Below, piece by piece: positions 14,221 to 57,133 of a stretch of DNA of 64,000 bases. The stretch's first letter is position 1. Every line of letters starts with the position of its first letter. Below the pieces are notes generated by a model. It saw nothing but the letters and a program-made list of their open reading frames with translations, searched no databases and was not told the DNA's origin. This DNA is from a virus. Its lineage: Duplodnaviria > Caudoviricetes. A program made the position numbers and the translations under genes. The DNA lies in IMG/VR virus record IMGVR_UViG_3300028833_000144, positions 1-64,000 of that record; one strand, given 5' to 3'.

Positions 14221-15390
14221 TTAGTAATCTTTTACCCGTATTCTTTCAAGTTTAGCAGGTAAACCACATAGTCTGCTAAACTGCTTATACTGTGTTGTTA
14301 ATGATCCTACTCGATTACGGGAAGTAAACATATCCGCTTGTTTACCCAAAGATTTACTAAATAAATATTTTTCTTTAGCCTGCCTAATCTTTCTTTCATA
14401 ACGTCTTTGTATTTGGGAACACTCATAAAGGGTATAGTGTTTACCGCTAGGGGTAGTATAACCTCTTTCGTTATCTTCAAGTATCTTATCCAACTGTTCT
14501 TGAGTATATTCCGGTTCTTTCTTGCCTATCTTTATATTCATAAAATAGTGACGGCAATTATACTGATAAATTTGTCTTTCGAAGCCGATATAATGATTAC
14601 CTTGAACGTCCTCAAAATCCTCTGCACTTTGCATTTTATCTCTGTTTTCAAAAGTAAACTGATGACCTTGAGCAGGAGCATGATCGGGTGCAGGTGCTAC
14701 ATGAGCAGACAATTCTACACCGTCAGCACCAAACTGCTTACCCATAGTGTCCTGTACTCTCTGAATGAGATTTTTAATGCTCTCCAGGATATTAAATCTT
14801 ACTGCTCTTACTGCGCTTTGTAATCCTCCGTTCACTTCATATCTAACACCACTATCAAACAACTGTGATTCTGTTCTTTGCATAGCAACATCAAAAAGGT
14901 TTTCGGGTACATTACTGTAACTTCTTGCTTCGTTGATTACAGAACGATAAGCGGACTGTAAGTTATAATTCTGCATATAAGAACTGTTAGATAAATCACG
15001 CATAGTAATAACAGGACTATCCGTTAAAGTGGTAAAACTGCCCTGTGCTTCGTTTATCATTCTGTTAGTGAGTTCTACTATTTCTTCATTTTGTGCCAAT
15101 GCTAATTGAGTTTCATAGAAAAGCAGACCTTCTCCGTAGATATACTCTACTATCCACCACCAGTCTTTCTTAATTCTCTTCTTTTGATCCCGTCTAAAAG
15201 CGTTATATTCATCTTCTATAAGACGAATATCACGCTGCATGGTTGCTACTTTATTAAGAGCGTCTAGTTTATCAAAATCGGCAAGCTTGCTTATCCTATT
15301 CGCAATAATACTGATTACGGATAGGCTAAACTCCTCTTGCCGTTTTGCGTAAGGATAAAGTATATTCTCAATTTGCTCATCATTAAGCAT
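14221..15390 (-). CDS. Minor capsid protein (A118 gp4 / Phage_min_cap2-like)
   Basis: ELSAH..PAPDHAPAQG..YNCRHYF..YT.EQL..YT.YECSQIQRRYERKIR..K..RERI motif set. Confidence 0.8.
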   Translation of the reverse strand: MLNDEQIENILYPYAKRQEEFSLSVISIIANRISKLADFDKLDALNKVATMQRDIRLIEDEYNAFRRDQKKRIKKDWWWIVEYIYGEGLLFYETQLALAQNEEIVELTNRMINEAQGSFTTLTDSPVITMRDLSNSSYMQNYNLQSAYRSVINEARSYSNVPENLFDVAMQRTESQLFDSGVRYEVNGGLQSAVRAVRFNILESIKNLIQRVQDTMGKQFGADGVELSAHVAPAPDHAPAQGHQFTFENRDKMQSAEDFEDVQGNHYIGFERQIYQYNCRHYFMNIKIGKKEPEYTQEQLDKILEDNERGYTTPSGKHYTLYECSQIQRRYERKIRQAKEKYLFSKSLGKQADMFTSRNRVGSLTTQYKQFSRLCGLPAKLERIRVKDY

Positions 15391-17147
15391 TAGCTATACT
15401 GATTATCTCCACTCTTAAAGTTATTATCTCCGTCCTCATTCTTCGGACTTTCTTCTTTCTTGCTTTCTGGTGCTTGCCCAAGCATCTTCATTTCAGTAAC
15501 ATTCTGTTCAACTGCTTCAAGATTCTCCTGTTGAATACGAATGAGTGCTTCTTTAGCCTGCTTTTCGGTTTCTCCAAAGTACCACATACGAGTTTCCAAC
15601 CTGCCTGCAAGACCATTGTTCATAAGAATCATTCTTCTCGAAAGCTCTGTGTCCTTATCAACAAGAATACTGTCGTCCCATTCAAAAGACACTTCATATT
15701 CGCCCTCTTCTGTAATCTCATAAAGGGTACAATAAGCGTTCATTACATAAACTGCATCTTCCAATGCTTTTTGTGTAGCTTTTTGAATATCGTGGTTAGT
15801 TTCGTAATTCCTGGTTCTTTGAAGCATAAGTTCCGTGGCGGTTTTTGCTTCTGCCATAGTTTCATCAGATAAAGTACCTCTTGAAAGACCAACCTTATCC
15901 TCTATTCTCATAAGCATCATATTAAGACCATGAATAAGGGATTGATCTCTTAAATCGGGAGAAAATACGTTGTAAGTATTTTCGTCATTAAGATCGACCT
16001 TACGATAAAGTCTTTGTTGAAGTTTACCCATTACAGAATTACCGCTATCGGGATCATCGGGATTATCAATGTATCTCAAGGCATCTCTATCAATGTCGAT
16101 AGCAAGTTCTCCTGCTTCAAACTCCCAAAGAAGTCTTGAATACTGCATATCAGCATCTTCGATAAGAGAAGTTGCTTTAGAAAAACCACTAACACCAAGA
16201 GGACTTTTTCTATCAATAGTATTAGCTTCCGGCATCTTAAAATAAGCGAACATAAGCCTATCTACATCTTCAATATGAGCAACAGGGGTAAACAATTCCC
16301 ACCCAGGTACAGACTGCAAAGGCACTTCATCTCCGAGATATTCAGCAGGATTATTACCAATACCACTCTTAAAAGCCTTATTAATAACAGTAACAGTATT
16401 CCCGTCTAATTTGTGATACTCAAGTCTTGAATAAGTAGTATCTTTATCATACTTTCTTTGAATAAACGCTGCTTCTGTCAACTTGCCGTTTGCATCAAAC
16501 GAAAGAGGAAAAAACTCATTAGCTTGAACATAATCAAATTCAATATCGTAAGAAGTTCCAAATTCCTCTGTTTCAGACTTGCCTGTAAGCATATCTACAT
16601 TACCGGAATTAACCTTAACTTTTCTTTCAACAACATAAGGCTTAATAACAAGACCACCAAGAGCAATTCCATACTCTAACTGTTCTCTCAAATTATCTTT
16701 AATCTTCTGATATTGCTTATTAAGATATTCTGCTCTCTTTGTAGAGCCTTTCGCAACGTCCTGTACTACCACATGAGTAGCAACCATAGGTTCTGCTTTT
16801 CCGTCTGTGCCAACATTATTAGGATTCATGTAATTAGGGGTAACGGGTTCAACCTCTTTCATAGGTGCGGTAACTTCACTCTCAAATTCCACAAGAGCAG
16901 TTCTAGCCTTTTCACTAGCAATTAATTGAGGTAAGCCAAGAGAACGAACGGTAATAGGATCATCGGGTGTTCCTTTTCTTATCCAAAAAGCCTTATCCTC
17001 ATACATATCTGACCAAAGATCAATAGCTTTCATCATCTTATCGGAAACGGCAGGTGTAACGTGTAATACTTCTTGAATAGTTTTCTTACCTATCATTTTG
17101 CTCCATATCCCCTTTATTTTATTTATTACTTGATTAAGTAGTGACAT
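15390..17147 (-). CDS. Portal protein (A118/SPP1-like)
   Basis: LPQLIASEKAR..EYGIALGGLVIKPY..YSRLEYH..SPLGVS..AKTATE..VSFEWDDSILVD. Confidence 0.85.
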   Translation of the reverse strand: MSLLNQVINKIKGIWSKMIGKKTIQEVLHVTPAVSDKMMKAIDLWSDMYEDKAFWIRKGTPDDPITVRSLGLPQLIASEKARTALVEFESEVTAPMKEVEPVTPNYMNPNNVGTDGKAEPMVATHVVVQDVAKGSTKRAEYLNKQYQKIKDNLREQLEYGIALGGLVIKPYVVERKVKVNSGNVDMLTGKSETEEFGTSYDIEFDYVQANEFFPLSFDANGKLTEAAFIQRKYDKDTTYSRLEYHKLDGNTVTVINKAFKSGIGNNPAEYLGDEVPLQSVPGWELFTPVAHIEDVDRLMFAYFKMPEANTIDRKSPLGVSGFSKATSLIEDADMQYSRLLWEFEAGELAIDIDRDALRYIDNPDDPDSGNSVMGKLQQRLYRKVDLNDENTYNVFSPDLRDQSLIHGLNMMLMRIEDKVGLSRGTLSDETMAEAKTATELMLQRTRNYETNHDIQKATQKALEDAVYVMNAYCTLYEITEEGEYEVSFEWDDSILVDKDTELSRRMILMNNGLAGRLETRMWYFGETEKQAKEALIRIQQENLEAVEQNVTEMKMLGQAPESKKEESPKNEDGDNNFKSGDNQYS

Positions 17148-17516: not shown

Positions 17517-19178
17517 TTAGTGTCCTCTTCTATTTGCATATGTTTCAAGTGCGTATCTGCAATTATGAACTACAATGCCATTAGATAGTACAAAATTGTG
17601 GAAAATTGGCACTTCTAAATCATAAACAGGCAGCATCTTATCCGTTTTCTCAACAGATTTAACTCTACAACATTCATCTATACAGGCTATTGTATCTTCC
17701 GTAGTTAAATCTCCTGCCATCACATAACCTCTGTTAGATGTAAGAATCCTATGATTATCCGTACATTCAACAAAACGTCCGTCAAGCAGCCATACTTTAT
17801 ATATTTGAGCATTTTCAAAAGTCAGCCTACAATGAATATACTCTGTTTCTACGACTGTTTTTGTATTAATATCATAAGCAAACAGAGTTCCCTCTGTACC
17901 CACCATATCTTCTATCTTTTTATATCCGTCAGAAGTAAAAACTTCGGTATTTCCTACCAAACAGGCATCAATACTGTGGTTATTCTCGTCCGGATATGCA
18001 GAAATGAAATTACCGTCCCTATCTCTTTCGTACTCATAATTAACAAATTCGTAATATGTTTCGGGGCATCTTTTCTTATCTATATAAATATGTCTTAAAC
18101 CTTGTAACCACTTAATACCATATCTGACGCTATCGGGACCTTTTTTAGCAGGTCTTATAAAAGCACCATAAGCTCTAAAGTCTGCAATAGACTTTTCTTC
18201 TGCACTATCTGCGATAACAAGTTCTGTCCTCTTAACCTTTTTCTCTTCGTCATACAGTTGTTTAAAGTTATCTTCATTTCTAGTCTTATAAGAAGTAAAT
18301 TCATCAAAGATATAAAGGTCTAACTTCTTTGCATCAAAGTGCATACGGACATAACGGAAAGGATCACGGGCAAAACCCCAGTCTATTCCGTTATAAATAT
18401 GGTCAAAAGATTTAACCATAGTATTAGGCATACGCAAATCGGAGGCATTTTCAAATACATCTCCTCCCGTACCCGTAGCAATACCCAGGTATTCATGTTC
18501 ATAAGCACGAGGATTAATAGCCTTTAAGTCCTCCGCTTCTTCTATAAATTCATCTCCTAGCCAAATACGAGGTACATCAAGGTAATTATTCCTTACTACA
18601 AGTGTTCTCGCCCTGCTTGAAGCCTTATCTGCATACACATTCGCCCAATTATTCTTACTGATCGGAGGGTTAAATGTTCTAAAATCCCAATATTTATCTC
18701 CTCCACGCATAGTTGACTGCGTTACTGAACGAATCTCATTCTCACCGGAGAACTGATCTAACTCCTCAAACCATGTGATACCGATATAACCGAACGTAGG
18801 CTTGATAGATTTTACTTTTTGTGGATTATCCAAGCCTAAAAAGTATATTTTTTGCCCTGTCGGTTTAAAAATAATAGGATTTTGATACGCTTTAGGTATT
18901 AAAAAGTAGTCTGTTAAGCCTAATTTGCCTATTCCCCACTCAATTTGCGCCCTTATACTGTTCTGTATGGTATTTCCTATCTTACGAAAACACGCTGCAT
19001 GAACACCAGGATTACTTATTACCAATAAAGGTATAACAATACCCACAAACGATGATTTTGTACTGCCTCTTCCTCCAAGGAAAGTGTAATGAACGTGTCC
19101 ATGATTCAAAATATCCTCAAGGACTTTATCATACATAGGAATTATACAGTCTTGTATATCTACGTTAAAGTTAAGCAT
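17517..19178 (-). CDS. terL: Terminase large subunit (PBSX/SPP1-type) containing an intein
   Basis: Walker A GGRGSTKSS, WFEELDQ Walker B, nuclease motifs GIDWGFARDP, ADSAE, NHSIDA. Confidence 0.95.
   Translation of the reverse strand: MLNFNVDIQDCIIPMYDKVLEDILNHGHVHYTFLGGRGSTKSSFVGIVIPLLVISNPGVHAACFRKIGNTIQNSIRAQIEWGIGKLGLTDYFLIPKAYQNPIIFKPTGQKIYFLGLDNPQKVKSIKPTFGYIGITWFEELDQFSGENEIRSVTQSTMRGGDKYWDFRTFNPPISKNNWANVYADKASSRARTLVVRNNYLDVPRIWLGDEFIEEAEDLKAINPRAYEHEYLGIATGTGGDVFENASDLRMPNTMVKSFDHIYNGIDWGFARDPFRYVRMHFDAKKLDLYIFDEFTSYKTRNEDNFKQLYDEEKKVKRTELVIADSAEEKSIADFRAYGAFIRPAKKGPDSVRYGIKWLQGLRHIYIDKKRCPETYYEFVNYEYERDRDGNFISAYPDENNHSIDACLVGNTEVFTSDGYKKIEDMVGTEGTLFAYDINTKTVVETEYIHCRLTFENAQIYKVWLLDGRFVECTDNHRILTSNRGYVMAGDLTTEDTIACIDECCRVKSVEKTDKMLPVYDLEVPIFHNFVLSNGIVVHNCRYALETYANRRGH
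17562..17963 (-). mobile_element. Mini-intein (134 aa) in TerL
   Basis: Begins CLVGNTEV, block B VECTDNHRILT, block F VYDLEV, ends HNFVLSNGIVVHN followed by Cys+1; no endonuclease domain. Confidence 0.95.
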
Positions 19179-50233: not shown

Positions 50234-50265
50234 AATATTATAGTACACGTTTGTTATGTTAGCAA
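50234..50265 (-). promoter_or_regulatory. SigA-type promoter with degenerate operator
   Basis: Minus strand TTGCTA-17 bp-TATAAT; aaacgtgta.tataatattta shared with 25691. Confidence 0.7.
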
Positions 50266-51720
50266 ATAGTTAATAAGGGTTGTTTTATCTAATTCAGAAC
50301 TTCCGTTTATCAGAATATTAGACATTTCTCCTCGCATTTCTACAAGGTGGTGTACTCTTTCATCTATCGTGTCTTTGCACATAAGAGTATAGATAGTGAT
50401 GTTATGAGTAGCCCCTATTCTATGAAGTCTATCGAGTGCTTGATTCTTTCTTTCCATATTCGTAGGTTCGTCAAGGAAGATGACTACTTCTCCTGCGTAT
50501 AGATCAATTCCATATCCCATAGCACCGATAGTGCCTATGACAAACTCTACGCTATCATCGTTCTGGAACAACTCTTTATTCTCATAGCGTTCATTATCAC
50601 TAATATCTCCTGTAATGATTACGCCCTTATGTTTCCTGGATAGTCTTTCATAAGCAGGGTTCACAATTTGAGTCCAAAGAGAGAATATGACAACCTTCTT
50701 TCCGTTGCTTACTGCATTATCAACTATCTCTTCCATCCTATCGAACTTCGCAGATACTTTCACATCGGAAAGAATACCCGTATATCCCGTTGCCTGTCTT
50801 GCTCTTATAAATTCAGTAAGAGGATTAGCAGACTTCTTTATTCTGTCTATATTCTTAACAAGCGTTCTTTTTTCTCCGTTGTATATTCTTGCCTGTTTAC
50901 TGCTCATTTCAACATATTCATCAACAAACAGTTTATCCGGAAGATCAAGTGTTTCTTCTTTCAATCTGCGTAACATCATCGTATCGAGAATAGAAGATAA
51001 TTCGTCAAGATGTTTATAGCCTAATATCTCCTTGCCGTTATATCCTCCCATCTTGCAATAATGATACTTAAACTTCCCGTAAGGATCGTTGTAATATCCA
51101 AGCCACCTTAACGACATATAAATATCAAGAGGAGAATTTTCTACAGGAGTTCCGGTTATAGCTATTTGAACAGGGGTATGAAGTTTTAAAATCTGTTTAG
51201 CCTGTTCTGTATTGTCATTCTTACAGATACTAAATTCATCTATTGCTATCATTTCTATTTGCCCTGTTTCACATAACTCTTGCAGTTTTTCTGTAATAGG
51301 ATAACTGTATTTGTCAACAGTCTTAATTCTCCCTCTTATTACCTTTTCTACCTTTTCTCCTGTGGGTATTCTGTATTTAAGAGTTTCAATGTTGGTAATA
51401 ATAAAACGAGGTAATTCATCTATCCTGTTTAAATCTTCTAACCTCTGTATATTACTTCCGATAGAATTACCTCTTTGTCCGAGAATATAACCCTCTTCAT
51501 AAGAATGTTTATGTATTTCATTAAGCCAATTCCATTTAAGACCATTCACGCAGCATATAATAAGACAATGCTTTACTTTCCGTATATCAGCGATGCAGAT
51601 AGTCTGTTGACTTTTTCCAAGTCCCATCTGATCTGCAAGAAGCCACTTATCGTGAGCAAGTCCGTATTCTATCCCTTCAAGTTGATGTTTAAAAGGTTGT
51701 AGTTTAAACGAAAAATCCAT
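50254..51720 (-). CDS. SNF2-family helicase/translocase
   Basis: LADQMGLGKS, IDE, ITGTPVEN, MLRRLKE, GYGIDL, QALDRLHRIG. Confidence 0.92.
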   Translation of the reverse strand: MDFSFKLQPFKHQLEGIEYGLAHDKWLLADQMGLGKSQQTICIADIRKVKHCLIICCVNGLKWNWLNEIHKHSYEEGYILGQRGNSIGSNIQRLEDLNRIDELPRFIITNIETLKYRIPTGEKVEKVIRGRIKTVDKYSYPITEKLQELCETGQIEMIAIDEFSICKNDNTEQAKQILKLHTPVQIAITGTPVENSPLDIYMSLRWLGYYNDPYGKFKYHYCKMGGYNGKEILGYKHLDELSSILDTMMLRRLKEETLDLPDKLFVDEYVEMSSKQARIYNGEKRTLVKNIDRIKKSANPLTEFIRARQATGYTGILSDVKVSAKFDRMEEIVDNAVSNGKKVVIFSLWTQIVNPAYERLSRKHKGVIITGDISDNERYENKELFQNDDSVEFVIGTIGAMGYGIDLYAGEVVIFLDEPTNMERKNQALDRLHRIGATHNITIYTLMCKDTIDERVHHLVEMRGEMSNILINGSSELDKTTLINYLLT

Positions 51721-51744: not shown

Positions 51745-51774
51745 AAAAAGAGATGGTATTTCTACCATCTCTTT
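51745..51774 (-). terminator. Intrinsic terminator ending the accessory cluster
   Basis: aaagagatggta-tttc-taccatctcttt with U-tail on minus strand. Confidence 0.8.
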
Positions 51775-51835
51775 CCCTAAGAAGTACAGTATTGGATTCA
51801 AGGGAATCAACTGATTCAATAAGATAATTATAACC

Positions 51836-52318
51836 TTATCTCTTCATCTGCTCAATAGCTCTACGATAAGATTCTCTTTCCTCTTCGTTACGAGCATTAC
51901 GCATCATTTCCTCAAGATGTCCTATCATATCTTCTTTCCCATGTCTGCTATAGCCATCGTCATATGAACCACGACTTGTATAACGACCCATAGAATCACG
52001 ACCTCTGCGATAAGAGCTATCTTCACTATATCTGCCATCTCCGTCACCATCTCTACCACGCCTACCGTCATAAGAAGTGCGGTAAGAGCCGTAAGCATTT
52101 GCATAATCCTCTGAATAACCACGAGAGTAATCCCTTGCGTAATCACGAGAATAACCTTCTTGCTCTGCTTTGTGCATAGCATCAACAGTCGTAATATCCT
52201 TAATAACATCGACCATCTTATAGATGTTATCGAGGTCAGCAGAAGATATTTCTTCTTTCTTTGAAATAGACTTGAGTTCATCTTCCATTATGTCTTGAAT
52301 GTCATATAAAGCCTTCAT
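51836..52318 (-). CDS. RG/SY-rich low-complexity protein with helical ends
   Basis: YSRDYARDYSRGYSEDY..GRRGRDGDGDGRYS..RGRDSMGRYTSRG. Confidence 0.75.
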   Translation of the reverse strand: MKALYDIQDIMEDELKSISKKEEISSADLDNIYKMVDVIKDITTVDAMHKAEQEGYSRDYARDYSRGYSEDYANAYGSYRTSYDGRRGRDGDGDGRYSEDSSYRRGRDSMGRYTSRGSYDDGYSRHGKEDMIGHLEEMMRNARNEEERESYRRAIEQMKR

Positions 52319-52335
52319 CTTGCAATCCTCCTTCC

Positions 52336-52791
52336 TTATGCAATTCTTTCAACAGATATTGAAGCGTTACGTCTAACTGTTATCGAGGGAGTAGGTGTTA
52401 CCGCAGGATCATCTTCTGTACCATCAACATACCTTCCTGAAACTGTCATACAACAGCCACAGGGAATAGTTATGATCGCTACAGTATTGATATGCGTGTA
52501 ATCTTCTACCGCCGCAGGAGTAACAATGGCTACACTTTCGGGTATCGTAACCCCATCAAGCGTAATACCGAGGGCAATAGGTGTGACCGCTCCACCTGTC
52601 GGGATCGCCACATTTGCCTGCATCGTAACTTTGTATCTTGCAAATCTGTTCGGAGTATTACCTTTGAGAATAAGAATCCCAGGGGCAGCAGGAATAACGT
52701 GTCCTGCATTGCAAGGAATAGAAACACTATTGAACGGAATAGTACCATTTAACGCAACAGTAGCATCCGCAGTAGTTATATATTCTGCCAT
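52336..52791 (-). CDS. BclA C-terminal-like beta-sandwich protein
   Basis: IPFN..L.G..ARYKV..AN.AIP.GG..I.L.I..DG..T..A..CGCC; fold inferred from recalled similarity. Confidence 0.55.
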   Translation of the reverse strand: MAEYITTADATVALNGTIPFNSVSIPCNAGHVIPAAPGILILKGNTPNRFARYKVTMQANVAIPTGGAVTPIALGITLDGVTIPESVAIVTPAAVEDYTHINTVAIITIPCGCCMTVSGRYVDGTEDDPAVTPTPSITVRRNASISVERIA

Positions 52792-52804
52792 AGGTCATTC
52801 CTCC

Positions 52805-53665
52805 TTAATTGTAGAAGCTACCATTGCATCCGCAACCGGAGTTCTGATTGCAAGTGAAGATAGGTGTTCTGCCATAGACCGGAGTTGTCGGAACAGGACA
52901 GTTATTCAGCCTGTTGTAAAGCTGATCTACCTCATTCGCAAAGCCCTGTGAGATAAGAGCATTCTGCGCCGTCTGGCTTTCCCTAAAGTTTGCCGCCGTG
53001 AGCTGTGTTCTGAGGCTGTCGTTCTCCCTCTTGTAACCGTCAAGTTCAAGCTGGCAAAGCTTATCAAGGATAGCCTGTGTACCATTGCTCTGGCTCTGGA
53101 TGATGTCTCTTGTGTTATTCGCATCAGCAAATCTTGTAGCAGCACTCTCACTCTGAATGATGTTCTGTGTCTGACAAGTAGCAAGACGCTGATCACAACA
53201 GCACTGTGCCAACTGCGATCCAAGAGAATTAAATCCCTGATTCATAGCTGTCTGCATACCAAATGCCGTCTGCATATTAGCTATCTGACGAGCGTTAGCA
53301 GAAGATTCAGCGTTAGAGAAACCGTTAGCAAGAGCCATCTGCATATCTCCGCAACAACCGCAAAGTTGTGTAGAAAGACTGCTTATTCCATCTCTAATGC
53401 TTGTGATACCGTCATTGAGCATAGCATCTCTGAAACCTGCATTAGTGTTTGTATTAATTCCCTGCTGTCCATTAAGAAGCCAAGGAAATTCATACATTCC
53501 GCCTCCGAAGCCACCTCCGAAGCCATTACCCCAACCGCCACCTGCGAACAAGAGCAGTAAGAGAATCCACCAACCATCGTAACCGAATGAGTTACCGAAT
53601 CCACTACCCATGCCACCATACATAGGTGCTACAGGCATTACCATGTTTTCTGAACCATTTGTCAT
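52805..53665 (-). CDS. Gly/Phe-rich membrane-anchored, Asn/Gln-rich protein with CGCC and CCC motifs
   Basis: GWWILLLLLFAGGGWGNGFGGGFGGG TM; LCGCCG; LAQCCCD; C-terminal CPVP..CGC. Confidence 0.75.
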   Translation of the reverse strand: MTNGSENMVMPVAPMYGGMGSGFGNSFGYDGWWILLLLLFAGGGWGNGFGGGFGGGMYEFPWLLNGQQGINTNTNAGFRDAMLNDGITSIRDGISSLSTQLCGCCGDMQMALANGFSNAESSANARQIANMQTAFGMQTAMNQGFNSLGSQLAQCCCDQRLATCQTQNIIQSESAATRFADANNTRDIIQSQSNGTQAILDKLCQLELDGYKRENDSLRTQLTAANFRESQTAQNALISQGFANEVDQLYNRLNNCPVPTTPVYGRTPIFTCNQNSGCGCNGSFYN

Positions 53666-53830
53666 TGTTTTTCTCCTTTTCTAAAGAATTTTTATTTCTC
53701 TATCGTTGCAACTAATAGAAATCGAATTAAATAACTCGTTTATCGAGTTAAGTTCGTTGAATGAGAATTAAAAATACGTTAGAATGAAGATGGTACGGGT
53801 GTGTCATCTTCGTACTTTTCTAACTCTCAC

Positions 53831-53869
53831 ACCTCGTAGCTATTCGCCCAACCCCCGAAGCTACGAGGT
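53831..53869. promoter_or_regulatory. Strong hairpin in cluster-internal intergenic region
   Basis: acctcgtagct-17 nt-agctacgaggt (11-bp perfect arms). Confidence 0.65.
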
Positions 53870-53955
53870 TTATTTCTGTAAATAACTGCAAATAAATGCA
53901 AAATAACTTAAAATTTTGCAAAAAATCTGCAAAAAACGCAGTTAAATTTCAAAAA

Positions 53956-54186
53956 TCAACCTTTAAATAAGTTTTGAAACTGCGGATTATTCTTCATCTG
54001 CATAACTCTGTTCACTTGTTCTTGTGATACTTGACCACTATTAAGTAAGTGTTGAATAATCTGATTAGGATCATTCATTCCTTGAGGAATATTAAATCTC
54101 TGAGATAACATAGCCATAGGATTTTGCTTAAACTGATTAAGTATAGTCATAAAGTTATTGTCATTAGGTTGTATGGGTGCTGCCAT
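53956..54186 (-). CDS. Gln/Asn/Met-rich small protein
   Basis: NQFKQNPMAMLSQ..NDPNQIIQHLLNSGQVSQEQ. Confidence 0.7.
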   Translation of the reverse strand: MAAPIQPNDNNFMTILNQFKQNPMAMLSQRFNIPQGMNDPNQIIQHLLNSGQVSQEQVNRVMQMKNNPQFQNLFKG

Positions 54187-54616
54187 AGTTTTCCTCCTTC
54201 TGTCGCTTTTGCTGACTATTACTATTCTGTCTTTGCTTTATAGCTTGTGTTATTTCGCTCTTGAACGCATCAAATTCGCTTCTGCTTACATAATCCGTAT
54301 TCTCTGTCGGTTGAGTTTGAGCAACGCTATTTGAAGGGGCATTTGCTGTACGCTCTTTGTAATCAAAGATACGCAAAGGTTGTGGCATACCGGAATTATC
54401 CATAGTTTTTATAAAGAAGATAGGTTCATCTCGATCGAATAACCACATACGCATACCAGGTGCTACGGGATAAGCGTTAGCACTTGCTTCTCCACCTTGA
54501 ATCCAGGCAAGAGAATTATTCTGTTGCGGTTGCTGAATGTTTTGTTGAACCGGATAACTTATTTGCTGCGGTTGATAGTAGGAATTAAAATAACCATTAG
54601 GATAAGCCATAATCAA
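54164..54616 (-). CDS. Gln/Pro-rich protein with conserved core
   Basis: YYQPQQ..QQPQQNN; WIQGGE..A.AYPVAPG..FFIKT.D..GMP..LRIFDY. Confidence 0.7.
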   Translation of the reverse strand: MIMAYPNGYFNSYYQPQQISYPVQQNIQQPQQNNSLAWIQGGEASANAYPVAPGMRMWLFDRDEPIFFIKTMDNSGMPQPLRIFDYKERTANAPSNSVAQTQPTENTDYVSRSEFDAFKSEITQAIKQRQNSNSQQKRQKEENYGSTHTT

Positions 54617-54993
54617 TACTCCTTTTCAAAGTAATAAAGAACTATCTCGTCCCCACTATCCCAAGAATCATAGTAGTTACCATCTATGCAAGTAACAACG
54701 TGACTTTGGCAAGTGAGAACATAACTACCTTTAGGGTGTTCATCGGCAAATTGAGCAACTGTAGTACATTTAGGACAAACAGAATCAATCGTCTTTTGAA
54801 CATATCCATACTTTCTCAAAAACATTCCCCATACGTAATTAGACGATGGCATATCTGCATAAATCAGTCCTTCTGAACACAATCCGAGATATGCTTCTTC
54901 CCAATTTTTCCCTGTAGCTTTACTGACTGCTCGTACAGAGCAATCTCCTACACGTTGATTACGAGGATTGTCATTGAAATAAACATAGGGCAT
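54613..54993 (-). CDS. Papain-like (C39-like) Cys-His-Asp protein
   Basis: GDCSVRAV..SHVVTC.DG.YYDSWD. Confidence 0.6.
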   Translation of the reverse strand: MPYVYFNDNPRNQRVGDCSVRAVSKATGKNWEEAYLGLCSEGLIYADMPSSNYVWGMFLRKYGYVQKTIDSVCPKCTTVAQFADEHPKGSYVLTCQSHVVTCIDGNYYDSWDSGDEIVLYYFEKEY

Positions 54994-55091
54994 ATAGTAA
55001 ACCTCCTATATGTCCTATTTTGTCAAAATATAATGTTCGTTAAAATGAAATATCCGTGTAACTTTCTTGCAATTTAAGATAAATTTACGGG

Positions 55092-55134
55092 TAATTAAAA
55101 ACCCTTGTGCGTTCCAGACACAAAGGTTTTAATT
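55092..55134 (-). terminator. Long hairpin after HTH gene
   Basis: taattaaaaacc-cttgtg..cacaa-aggttttaatta. Confidence 0.55.
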
Positions 55135-55142
55135 AAAAGGAA

Positions 55143-55346
55143 TTAGATATGTTTAAAAAGTTTGGACTCGCATTTTGATACGATATTCTTTATCTGTTTA
55201 ACCGACATATTCATTTCATCAGCAAGAGGTTCATAACAGATACCATCTATAAGCCTACGCTTGAGTATCTTTCTATCTCGTTCTGAATGAATCCACTCGT
55301 CTATCTCGTGTTCTATCTGAGAATTGGTAATATTCTCATAGTTCAT
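55143..55346 (-). CDS. Sigma-70 region-4-like HTH protein
   Basis: ERDRKILKRRLIDGICYEPLADEMNMSVKQIKNIV. Confidence 0.7.
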   Translation of the reverse strand: MNYENITNSQIEHEIDEWIHSERDRKILKRRLIDGICYEPLADEMNMSVKQIKNIVSKCESKLFKHI

Positions 55347-55376
55347 CTTCTTCTACGCCTTGTTCCGTTACTACCA

Positions 55377-55676
55377 TTACGGCGTACTCTCGAATTGCTC
55401 CTGCGTCTGCGGATCGTTACTGTTTGTGCCATAATCAACATCTCCTGCTCCTACGATATTAACTCCATCTCCGTCTTGAGAAGCCTCTACTTCGATGTAG
55501 TCATCACTAACATAGTCATACTGATTCCAAAAATACAACCATGCAGCGTTTGTTGCGATCAAGGCAATAATGAGAAATATTATGATTCTATTACGCCAAA
55601 GATCATTTCTCTCGTCTTTTGCCTGCATACGTTCAAAAGCGATACGGCTCATAATGATATTATCATTGTTTTCCAT
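55377..55676 (-). CDS. Single-TM membrane protein with acidic tail
   Basis: IIIFLIIALIATNAAWLYFW; start MENND. Confidence 0.65.
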   Translation of the reverse strand: MENNDNIIMSRIAFERMQAKDERNDLWRNRIIIFLIIALIATNAAWLYFWNQYDYVSDDYIEVEASQDGDGVNIVGAGDVDYGTNSNDPQTQEQFESTP

Positions 55677-55766
55677 ATTTTTACCTCCATTCATGTGAAA
55701 GATTTTCCACGTTGCACTTTTAGTTTAACTTACCGGAAGTTCAATATCAACAAATTCTTTGTAAAC

Positions 55767-55798
55767 TAAAACCCTCACGATACGGAATGAGGGTTTTA
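55767..55798 (-). terminator. Terminator after endolysin
   Basis: taaaaccctca-10 nt-tgagggtttta. Confidence 0.7.
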
Positions 55799-55861
55799 AT
55801 GATGATGCGCCACATAAAAAGGAGGTTTATAGTTATGGGTTTGATCCGTATCTTCTCCTAG

Positions 55862-56566
55862 TTATCCTTTAAGCAGATAGTTCCAGGTCTTTTGTCCGCA
55901 TATATCATCAATGTTTTGAATGATACCCTTCTTCTGCATTTCAACTTGAACATTATGAACGGCATATCTTACGTTTTTACCAAAATCGCAGTCAACAGTA
56001 AGAGGCTTGCCGTTTTCGCCCTTGAAATTCTTTCCATTGAGTATAATTTGAAGTGTACCTACTTCATAACACTTTGAACCTAACTGTAATACAGGCATTT
56101 CTACTGTCACGGTCTTAATCTCCTTATCTTCTCTGTATCTTAAAACGTAATCCCAACCTTTTGAAAATTCATAGAATTTACCGACTGCTATTTCCCAACC
56201 TGTTTGGTCGCCGTCTTTTCCGTTATAGATACCGCCCTTTTCGTTACAAGACGCTTGTACTATCTGACCATTACCGATAAATATACAAGTATGCTTCTTC
56301 TCGTTAAGAAGTACATCTCCTTTTAAAAGTAACATACCTTTTGTGTACTTAATATCTTGAAAGCCACATTTCTTAAAAGCACTACGCATATTTTCTGTAT
56401 ATGACGCACCTGCTTCTTTTACTTTCAGTCCTGCTTCTTCGTATGCTTGGATAACAAGGCTAGAGCAGTCATAATCAACGCCCCAACGTCCTATTTGGTC
56501 GTAACCATGAGAATTATCATTAGCAATACCTACTGCCCAATTAACTGCTTTATCAATGATAGTCAT
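55862..56566 (-). CDS. Endolysin: NlpC/P60 peptidase plus peptidoglycan-binding domain
   Basis: YDCSSLV..GDVLL..HT..IG; C-terminal V..LQ..L..L.VDCDFG..DDICG..TW. Confidence 0.85.
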   Translation of the reverse strand: MTIIDKAVNWAVGIANDNSHGYDQIGRWGVDYDCSSLVIQAYEEAGLKVKEAGASYTENMRSAFKKCGFQDIKYTKGMLLLKGDVLLNEKKHTCIFIGNGQIVQASCNEKGGIYNGKDGDQTGWEIAVGKFYEFSKGWDYVLRYREDKEIKTVTVEMPVLQLGSKCYEVGTLQIILNGKNFKGENGKPLTVDCDFGKNVRYAVHNVQVEMQKKGIIQNIDDICGQKTWNYLLKG

Positions 56567-56928
56567 GCTTTAGCCTCTCTTTCTTCTCTGCTCTTAACGT
56601 ATTCACGAACTTCATCTATACGATTAAAAGCGGTCTTGAGGTCACGCTTGATAACTGCTATTTCTTCCCCATGCTCCGCAAGTGTCTTATTCATAGCCTT
56701 TATATCTGCTCTTGTTTCGTTTGTAGTAGCACATACTTGGTCTAATTTCATATTAGCCTTAAATATGCCCGACCGCATTTCAGATAACTCTTTCTCATCT
56801 TCTTTAATATCAGTCTTACCATTACGCACTTGAGCGAGAATAAAGGTGGTAACACCCACTATCATAGCGATAGCAGAAATACCCGTCTTTATGAGTTCGT
56901 TAATGTCTATCTCGTTACTAAGTACCAT
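56563..56928 (-). CDS. Lysis-associated membrane protein (TM plus coiled coil)
   Basis: One TM then heptad repeats; between holin and endolysin. Confidence 0.55.
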   Translation of the reverse strand: MVLSNEIDINELIKTGISAIAMIVGVTTFILAQVRNGKTDIKEDEKELSEMRSGIFKANMKLDQVCATTNETRADIKAMNKTLAEHGEEIAVIKRDLKTAFNRIDEVREYVKSREEREAKA

Positions 56929-56929
56929 T

Positions 56930-57133
56930 TCAGTCCTCTACTTCGGGCAAGCCTGCAAGAGATGTAGCAAGAGAGAGAATAGACGCTAGGGCGGATGCAG
57001 AGAGTACATACACCCAATTAACATCTTGAAGCACAACAGAACAACCCACGCCTGCAACAAAGGCTTGAAAAAAAGTCTTAATTGCTCTAACGCCTGCTTT
57101 TTCCCACCATTCTTTACTTTTAAGATATTTCAT
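56930..57133 (-). CDS. Holin, r1t-like
   Basis: WWEKAGVRAIKTFFQA..SLATSLAGLPEV. Confidence 0.85.
   Translation of the reverse strand: MKYLKSKEWWEKAGVRAIKTFFQAFVAGVGCSVVLQDVNWVYVLSASALASILSLATSLAGLPEVED

Follow-up and report, generated by a model that had tools for sequence, protein, structure and literature searches.

A widespread eight-gene accessory cassette of gut and rumen phages with a Cys-rich helical protein, a BclA-like jelly roll and a candidate peptidase

The stretch of phage DNA analysed here (64,000 nucleotides, positions 1 to 64,000 of IMG/VR record IMGVR_UViG_3300028833_000144; 'the window') makes up the first 64 kb of one 74,007-bp contig. Between positions 51836 and 55694 its minus strand carries eight open reading frames (ORFs), called g1 to g8 in the order of reading, all of which were confirmed in the window and which are bounded by strong terminator hairpins. 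This cassette is a self-contained, horizontally mobile accessory unit carried by tailed phages that infect anaerobes of the gut and rumen. We tentatively propose, with a probability of about 0.35, that it specifies a protease-matured stalk-and-knob assembly which is anchored in the membrane by g6, made late, and acts on the host envelope without belonging to one type of virion. This reading is favoured because the unit moves between unrelated phage architectures, is optional and self-regulated, and accompanies lysis genes.

A sequence-only reading of the region had described the eight genes, their amino acid compositions and their Cys motifs, and this description proved correct when ORFs and compositions were recomputed. 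Five of the eight proteins (g3–g7) match PHROG families with E-values of 1e-7 to 1e-28, all of them families of unknown function, and scans of all eight against Pfam, NCBIfam and PADLOC gave only sub-threshold or noise matches. Family, defence, structure-sequence and literature searches named no function, and no description of the cassette was found. Hydrophobic segments are confined to g1 and g6, and by inspection no signal peptide was seen in any of the proteins.

Recurrence of the cassette

The distribution of the cassette was surveyed by tblastn and iterative profile searches, and 99 loci were fetched from a phage collection, viral contigs, metagenome contigs and species-representative genomes. 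The sequence-only reading had described similar clusters as recurrent in gut phages, and the synteny survey bears this out for gut and rumen phages: the same gene order was found, with few exceptions, in about 95 loci. It was seen in Butyrivibrio phage Ceridwen and in 16 metagenomic loci. Among the 99 loci, g6 is present in 97, g7 in 96, g4 in 86, g8 in 82, g3 in 75, g5 in 71, g2 in 48 and g1 in 31, where it comes first in the gene order each time. The core of the cassette is g4–g6–g7.

According to the genome records, the hosts are mostly rumen and gut Clostridia, with Lachnospiraceae, Ruminococcus and Acutalibacteraceae as typical cases; host isolates include Lachnospira intestinalis (CLA-AA-H89B) and Lachnospiraceae strain JLR.KK009. 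Ceridwen is the sole cultured phage with a Clostridia-type cassette in the phage collection. It carries g2–g8 after its lysin, and its g1 homologue was found by iterative search. Only lytic growth was seen for Ceridwen, which infects Butyrivibrio fibrisolvens, and its authors judged it to be virulent (PMC7372960).

Within three genes upstream of the cassette, 150 ORFs were collected from about 52 loci, and the commonest families all have endolysin or holin domains. A lysin is even found between g3 and g4 in two loci (L017, L018), and a holin occupies that place in a third (L044). The downstream neighbours vary and comprise DUF7211 proteins, integrases, Cro-like helix-turn-helix (HTH) proteins, SNF2 helicases and terminases. 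Relatives bearing the SNF2 gene and at least 6 kb of sequence on both sides contain the cassette in eight cases and are without it in 15. As a unit the cassette is optional, and it travels with the end of the genome that holds the late and lysis genes.

In a set of 62 complete cassettes, the mean pairwise identity is highest for g7 (0.54) and lowest for g4 (0.31). The distances between loci are poorly correlated overall, which reveals mosaicism within the cassette. Spearman correlations of these distances, calculated without a null model, were 0.47 for g6–g7, 0.37 for g4–g5, 0.36 for g6–g8 and 0.25 for the adjacent pair g7–g8. They provide weak evidence for two sub-modules, g4–g5 and g6–g7–g8, a split that matches the spacer in front of g6.

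g6, a Cys-rich helical protein with a short hydrophobic segment

The core protein g6 (52805–53665; this and all following cassette features are on the minus strand) has 286 residues and matches PHROG 16490 (E 5.7e-28). Its family comprises at least 8000 clusters at 90% identity, all with E ≤ 0.001, and 889 representatives at 50% identity. A hydrophobic run of about 11 residues lies between Gly/aromatic-rich arms and is followed by a long helical region that is rich in Q, N and A and has conserved clusters of Cys, and by a Pro/Cys/Gly tail. Residues 1–66 contain 30% Gly; there are 12 Cys residues, with CGCC at position 102, CCC at 155 and CGC at 278. Across 59 diverse homologues the hydrophobic run has 9–13 residues (median 11), the arms have about 20 residues each with about eight Gly apiece, and almost no Lys or Arg occurs on either flank. 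Ten Cys columns are conserved in the same set.

Judged from its sequence, the hydrophobic segment is atypical for a standard membrane anchor and in composition recalls viral fusion peptides. A comparison of the g6-homologue profile with the fusion peptide and first helix of HA2 covered g6 positions 43–121 and was non-significant (E 0.09–2). A profile search of the PDB gave only coiled-coil-type matches (ZorA, the linker of topoisomerase I, and HA2), none better than E 0.018, a sequence search of the PDB gave nothing significant, and a search of the ESM Atlas with g6, as with g4, retrieved only viral clusters without names. Because the other cassette proteins except g1 lack a hydrophobic segment and none has a signal peptide, partners of g6 must meet it in the cytoplasm or after lysis.

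The g6 gene is interrupted in several relatives. About 1.25 kb (L086:1604-2856) interrupts it exactly at the conserved CCC codons, in two loci (L007 and L027) it is split into two pieces, and in two others (L021 and L029) insertions of about 1 kb with an ORF on the opposite strand are located in the g5–g6 spacer. These interruptions look like homing-type insertions. An Rfam search of the five loci with a split g6 or a spacer insertion found no intron model at the gathering score.

g7, a jelly roll of the BclA/ExsF kind

The most conserved member of the cassette, g7 (52336–52791), has 151 residues, matches PHROG 20016 (E 3.2e-27) and is represented by 3511 clusters. Its AlphaFold2 (AF2) model, with a predicted local distance difference test score (pLDDT) of 85.1 and a predicted template-modelling score (pTM) of 0.80, is a ten-strand TNF/C1q-like jelly roll of the kind found in the C-terminal domain of BclA (BclA-CTD) and in ExsF (BxpB). 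In Foldseek the top matches were the BclA structures 3twi and 1wck (E 7e-8 to 3e-7, TM-score 0.70–0.78; 0.71/0.78 for the match at E 7e-8), followed by F-BclA, BxpB and ExsFA and, further down, by domains of TNF and C1q together with some knobs of phage fibres; the matches 3twi, 1wck, 2z5w, 9h38, 8d02 and 7r1m together span E-values of 7e-8 to 1.2e-6 and TM-scores of 0.64–0.79. The resemblance to BclA proposed in the sequence-only reading thus holds for the fold but does not extend to family membership: Pfam BclA_C (PF18573) gave no match at E up to 1, and phmmer and profile searches of the PDB sequences were without significant match and retrieved no BclA or BxpB chain. C27 and G112-C113-C114 are invariant in g7, with CGCC at position 111.

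In the exosporium, Pro-rich partner peptides dock in the cleft of the ExsF trimer, the N-terminus of BclA is proteolytically trimmed, and the proteins assemble in the cytoplasm with Cys-rich partners (PMC12357932). A complex prediction with three copies each of g7 and of g6 residues 130–286 scored 0.00 and weighs neither way on binding.

g3, a candidate cysteine peptidase, and its exchange for a zincin-like protein

The 126-residue protein g3 (54613–54993), which matches PHROG 3754 (E 1.4e-28), is a candidate papain-like (clan CA) cysteine peptidase. In an alignment of 28 homologues, D17-C18, H98 and D109 are invariant or nearly so. In the AF2 model (pLDDT 95.3), C18 begins a helix (18–27), and H98 and D109 are located at consecutive strands (99–103 and 106–109). 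In addition, g3 has a conserved CPxC at 73–76, where a helix begins, which sets it apart from C39 and Josephin peptidases.

The Foldseek match was weak (E 0.07). By exhaustive structural alignment (VIA-align), the top fifty matches were all clan CA papain-like peptidases, among them the C39 double-glycine peptidase 6mpz (Z 7.2), ComA (7.1), Josephin (7.0), YopQ (7.0) and AvrPphB (6.5); a Z of about 7 is in the range where the aligner warns of a common arrangement, and C39 and the other clan CA families are tied within 1 Z unit. A papain- or C39-like protease had been postulated from the sequence. The clan CA top matches and the Cys-His-Asp set uphold this at the level of the fold, but not as membership in Pfam C39: neither g3 nor any of the 28 homologues, scanned singly, matched Peptidase_C39 or C39_2, and that scan gave nothing consistent. 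PDB sequence and profile searches with g3 found nothing significant. By analogy with C39 substrates, the Gly-Gly-rich N-terminal arms of g6 could serve as cleavage sites.

Thirteen loci without g3 (L023-L027, L063, L067, L086, L088, L092-L095) carry instead a HExxH protein of 105–125 residues, a mini-zincin belonging to one family, whose Pfam matches (SprT-like, M78) are sub-threshold. Its gene starts between less than 50 nt and about 2 kb past the last detected cassette gene, and in loci with g3 the HExxH family is absent or kilobases off. The earlier notion of a cassette with its own protease is thereby strengthened, as a protease seems to be integral. That the cassette carries a papain-like peptidase here and an unrelated one, the mini-zincin, in another subtype argues for proteolysis as part of its action. 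Lone g3-like proteins outside any cassette were observed in large Bacillus phages of the Tsamsa group, where some are annotated 'putative peptidase', and in Prevotella Lak megaphages.

A g6 homologue in a crAss-like phage

Protein gp022 of the crAss-like phage cr116_1 is homologous to g6 in its C-terminal half (hhalign probability 99.3%, E 2e-20). It shares the Gly-flanked hydrophobic segment, the CCC motif and the Cys tail. Its gene neighbours encode a 116-aa (115-residue) HExxH protein, a beta-rich protein of 136 aa with Cys pairs and a g7-like C-terminal ending, and a protein with a long C-terminal helix. As a g6 homologue occurs in a crAss-like phage, a common role cannot depend on siphovirus virion architecture. 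None of the virion proteins named in the structural atlas of crAss001 resembles g6, and the tblastn hits did not include crAss001.

The remaining cassette proteins

The first gene, g1 (55377–55694), encodes a small single-pass membrane protein whose C-terminal tail is acidic and which has one strong hydrophobic helix (Kyte–Doolittle score KD19 2.36 at residues 37–55). Its likely start is Met7 at 55676, the second ATG, which is preceded by GGAGG.

The 67-aa HTH protein g2 (55143–55346) resembles region 4 of sigma-70 factors, with scores below the curated cut-offs: 20.9 bits against 24.1 for Pfam Sigma70_r4 (E 2.6e-4) and 25.9 against 42.9 for TIGR02937, the extracytoplasmic function (ECF) sigma model (E 6e-6). 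It further matches PHROG 36, a transcriptional regulator (E 4.9e-4), and its weak NCBIfam matches include SigH region 4. We presume g2 to be the regulator of the cassette.

The core member g4 (54164–54616; PHROG 21718, E 1.4e-21) has a Q/Y/N/P-rich N-terminus (residues 1–36: Q 25%, Y 14%, N 14%, P 11%), a conserved beta-rich central core and a C-terminal helix. Translation probably begins with the ATG at 54610, and the Atlas copy begins at residue 3. A Q/N/M-rich helical protein of 76 aa is encoded by g5 (53956–54186; PHROG 22984, E 1.8e-7; Q 17%, N 17%, M 9%). By composition, g8 (51836–52318) consists of acidic helical segments at both termini which flank a low-complexity centre rich in R, G, Y, S and D (residues 55–128: R 19%, G 18%, Y 18%, S 16%, D 15%); the versions in subtype B are longer. 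The family search with g8 gave only a weak match to the YqbF HeH domain (E 0.006), and Pfam scans of long g8 and g4 variants gave nothing.

Expression signals and genomic setting

On the minus strand, tail genes are followed by two holin-like genes and the gene for a 234-aa endolysin-like protein (55862–57133), then by g1–g8 and an SNF2 helicase gene (50254–51720). The terminators that the sequence-only reading had placed at both ends of the cassette were recovered by folding. The intrinsic terminator at 55765–55800, which closes the holin-endolysin unit and forms the upstream boundary, has a stem of 14 bp, folds at −17.5 kcal/mol (z −5.9) and runs into a U-rich stretch; that at 51745–51777, closing the cassette ahead of the SNF2 helicase gene, has a stem of 15 bp, folds at −19.2 kcal/mol (z −5.5) and leads into a U-tract. 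Another intrinsic terminator directly 3′ of g2 (55092–55135; −16.5 kcal/mol, z −5.2, then a U-tract) insulates g3–g8 from g1–g2. All three hairpins were missed by a simple terminator scan. A candidate sigma-70-like promoter (TTGATA, 17 nt, TAAACT) precedes g1 at 55722–55750, as a pattern match of 9/12 in a consensus scan. Each of g3–g8 is preceded by a strong Shine-Dalgarno sequence. A good sigma-70 promoter was not found between the post-g2 terminator and g3, and expression of g3–g8 may need read-through or a g2-dependent promoter.

The spacer in front of g6 (53666–53955, 290 nt) is structured (RNA fold −77.7 kcal/mol, z −5.4). It contains five T-rich direct repeats of the TTTGCA type (53890–53945), several stable hairpins and, about 15 nt ahead of the ribosome-binding site of g6, an imperfect palindrome of 21 bp. 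The palindrome is kept in relatives with changed bases, and the repeat arrays there use other words (TTTTGAAAT, TTTAACTC). Within the window, the motif TTTTGCAR is clustered in this spacer only, with no window-wide enrichment. The idea that the repeats are a g2 operator was dropped because the repeat words differ among relatives whose g2 proteins are 75–78% identical. An Rfam scan of the cassette gave a single match, in this spacer, to a small RNA (sRNA) model and under the gathering score.

A protein of about 100 aa with the DUF7211 domain is often encoded by a ninth gene after g8 (L004:9780-10076, L007:7045-7359 and five other loci). Pfam scans gave nothing for the scanned copies of the frequent ninth gene, and other copies match DUF7211. 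The window is without it and has the terminator directly after g8. On a contig of a Bacillota metagenome-assembled genome (MAG), at least 17 tRNA genes were observed a few kb downstream of the cassette (L027:13158-18326).

The contig contains two complete, unrelated head and packaging modules of differing G+C content (about 0.36–0.42 and 0.47–0.49). The AT-rich module occupies 1–20445 of the window, with the large terminase subunit (TerL) at 17517–19178 and the portal at 15390–17147. The module with G+C 0.47–0.49 (57785–73771) encodes portal, TerL, major head protein and tape measure, and the cassette lies to its left. The contig could represent two prophages in tandem, a chimera of assembly or a genome of unusual make-up. 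The order holin, lysin, g1–g8 and SNF2 recurs on an independent viral contig (L101), so there is no assembly junction inside that stretch.

Discussion

The favoured reading, a g6-anchored assembly acting on the host envelope, can be outlined as follows. The HTH protein g2 would gate transcription through the terminator downstream of its gene. The Gly-flanked hydrophobic segment of g6 would insert in the cytoplasmic membrane, with the helical Cys-rich part as a cytoplasmic stalk, and g7 trimers would dock on g6 as trimers of the ExsF/BclA type do on their exosporium partner peptides. The peptidase might trim one of the cassette proteins during assembly, and the Cys clusters might join the parts, by metal in the anoxic cell or by disulfides once oxidized; g4, g5 and g8 could be low-complexity adaptors or chaperones. 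The assembly would be produced late, alongside the lysis genes. Its target would be the host envelope, where it might, for instance, help to release progeny or prevent re-adsorption or entry, and it would not be a fixed part of one virion type.

Several observations weigh against this proposal. The membrane span of g6 is uncertain because the run has only about 11 residues and no flanking Lys or Arg. We infer the late timing from gene position alone, and the cassette's own promoter, terminators and regulator together with the frequent adjacency of integrase genes also fit a moron expressed during lysogeny. The co-variation values are in part due to linkage. In cr116_1, the neighbours of gp022 gave no significant hhalign match to the g7, g4 and zincin profiles, and the position of the g6 homologue between the small terminase (terS) and capsid genes fits a virion part equally well.

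That position is one of several features which suit an accessory fibre or decoration of the virion. Here a coiled-coil shaft of g6 would bear a trimeric knob of g7, in the manner of PRD1 P5 or of tail fibres that end in a knob, with g4 and g5 as assembly chaperones, and after maturation by the peptidase the structure would sit on the particle and bind host or gut surfaces. The fold matches of g7 include the phi812 central spike, the cyanophage A-1(L) fibre and the A4 tail; the cassette always adjoins late genes, depositors have annotated g6 homologues as 'viral fiber' or 'spike', and the ribosome-binding sites of g3–g8 are strong. We nevertheless regard a fibre as unlikely. A cassette that is optional among relatives and has its own regulator and terminators is not what such a part would predict, and transfer as a unit among unrelated phage types is hard to square with a docking site on one virion architecture. 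Unlike receptor-binding tips, g7 is the most conserved and not the most variable member, and the hydrophobic, Gly-rich N-terminus of g6 has no recognizable virion-attachment domain. Optional occurrence is, on the other hand, in keeping with a moron for superinfection exclusion or anti-phage defence, driven from its own promoter also in lysogens, whose membrane protein, protease and partners would block entry or abort infection. The slot between lysis genes and integrase or early genes is a classic one for morons, the candidate promoter, regulator and insulating terminators are at hand, genes for Ltp-type exclusion lipoproteins lie just downstream in two loci, and the g6-homologue profile weakly matches the coiled-coil tail of ZorA (E 0.018). 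However, PADLOC-DB 2.0 gave only a weak match of g1 to PDC-S01 (E 0.0043) and none for g2–g8, the cassette occurs in phages reported or classed as virulent (Ceridwen, Crassvirales), and eight genes rich in low-complexity proteins are unlike known exclusion systems. The strong ribosome-binding sites suggest bulk structural output, and a defence role appears, if anything, slightly less probable than a fibre.

The sequence-only reading had itself proposed a protease-matured, crosslinked shell or matrix, occlusion-body-like and protecting virions or DNA, or else a nucleic-acid-binding compartment. The low-complexity and Cys-rich proteins would assemble by themselves into such a coat, matrix or condensate, and the protection might serve, for instance, during exposure to oxygen between hosts. 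The protein composition is as it was first described, the fold of g7 is common to exosporium proteins that assemble in the cytoplasm with Cys-rich partners (PMC12357932), the protease is integral, the cassette is so far known only from phages of strict anaerobes, and g8 combines its RG/SY-rich centre with the weak HeH-like match. But the Pfam, NCBIfam and PHROG results contain no lattice-forming family (ExsY/CotY-like, encapsulin, polyhedrin or shell), and g6, the Cys-rich protein, is no compact tile but long and helical, with a hydrophobic anchor, which makes a matrix of this kind improbable to us. A variant, a hitherto unrecognized phage machine, is more doubtful still: a protease-matured assembly of a fusion-peptide-like g6, BclA-like g7 trimers and prion-like adaptors, reduced or metal-bound under anoxic conditions, would be locked by thiol oxidation when the lysate meets oxygen and would encase or clump progeny with membrane debris, so that a bacterial virus would have its own kind of occlusion matrix with which to pass between hosts. 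Least probable of all is the conversion of the spore surface by phage-supplied exosporium- or coat-like proteins that are built into host spores. The best fold matches of g7 (BclA, F-BclA, BxpB/ExsFA), the weak SigH region 4 matches of g2 and the many Clostridia among the host MAGs point that way; yet the cassette occurs in a lytically growing phage of the non-sporulating Butyrivibrio fibrisolvens, a g6 homologue occurs in Crassvirales, whose hosts are Bacteroidota, and the sequences contain neither an exosporium leader (NCBIfam) nor collagen repeats. The spore-coat-like flavour of the earlier interpretation was accordingly rejected on host range, given Ceridwen and the crAss-like homologue.

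Among the multi-gene modules of gut and rumen phages that have no known function, the cassette is one of the most widespread, and g6 reaches from Clostridia prophages to a crAss-like phage. Its parts are unusual: an exosporium-type jelly roll outside a spore context, a helical protein with Cys clusters and a fusion-peptide-like anchor, two unrelated peptidases in the same role, and a private regulator. Virulent and cultivable, Ceridwen offers a direct genetic and proteomic route. The function, once worked out, would annotate thousands of hypothetical proteins and could expose a step of the life cycle that is specific to anoxic, host-associated habitats.

Comparison with known systems

Minimal HTH regulators such as GerE and region 4 of sigma-70 are the closest parallels for g2, which is little more than a region-4-like HTH encoded ahead of its putative target genes. 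From the sigma-70 family it differs by scores below the curated cut-offs and by the lack of region 2, for which 67 residues leave no room; because region 2 is lacking, g2 cannot act alone as a sigma factor.

With the C39 peptidases of peptidase-containing ABC transporters (PCAT/ComA) and the Josephin-type members of clan CA, g3 shares the papain-like core, the Cys that opens helix 1, and His and Asp on consecutive strands; the root mean square deviation (rmsd) from C39 and Josephin structures is 3.6–4.2 over 100–106 residues. In contrast to C39 domains, g3 is a free ORF of 126 aa that is not fused to an ABC transporter, and no such transporter is encoded in the cassette or its flanks. By inspection, a double-glycine leader consensus was not seen in the cassette proteins.

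The likeness of g7 to BclA-CTD and ExsF (1wck, 3twi, 8d02, 7r1m, 9h38, 9h3d) lies in the jelly-roll fold, with matches at E 7e-8 to 1e-6 and TM-scores of 0.68–0.79, and like ExsF it is small and standalone. As in the exosporium system, there is a putative protease, and the conserved termini of g6 are Pro-rich. Differences are the absence of GXY collagen repeats from the eight translations and of an NCBIfam exosporium leader (TIGR03720) beyond noise from g6, g7 and g8, the conserved Cys residues peculiar to g7, and the fact that g7 is phage-borne and occurs also in phages of non-sporulating hosts.

For g6, the spanins (lambda Rz/Rz1) and influenza HA2 may be regarded as analogues. The differences from spanins are clear. 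There is no lipoprotein partner, and neither a lipobox nor a signal peptide was seen by inspection in the cassette proteins; most cassette hosts are monoderm Clostridia without an outer membrane to fuse; and a terminator separates the cassette, with its own regulator, from the endolysin. The combination that characterizes two-component spanins, an i-spanin and a lipobox-containing o-spanin in a diderm host, was thus not found. What g6 has in common with them is a gene adjoining the lysis genes and, as in HA2, a hydrophobic, Gly/aromatic-rich N-terminus followed by long helices with conserved Cys residues.

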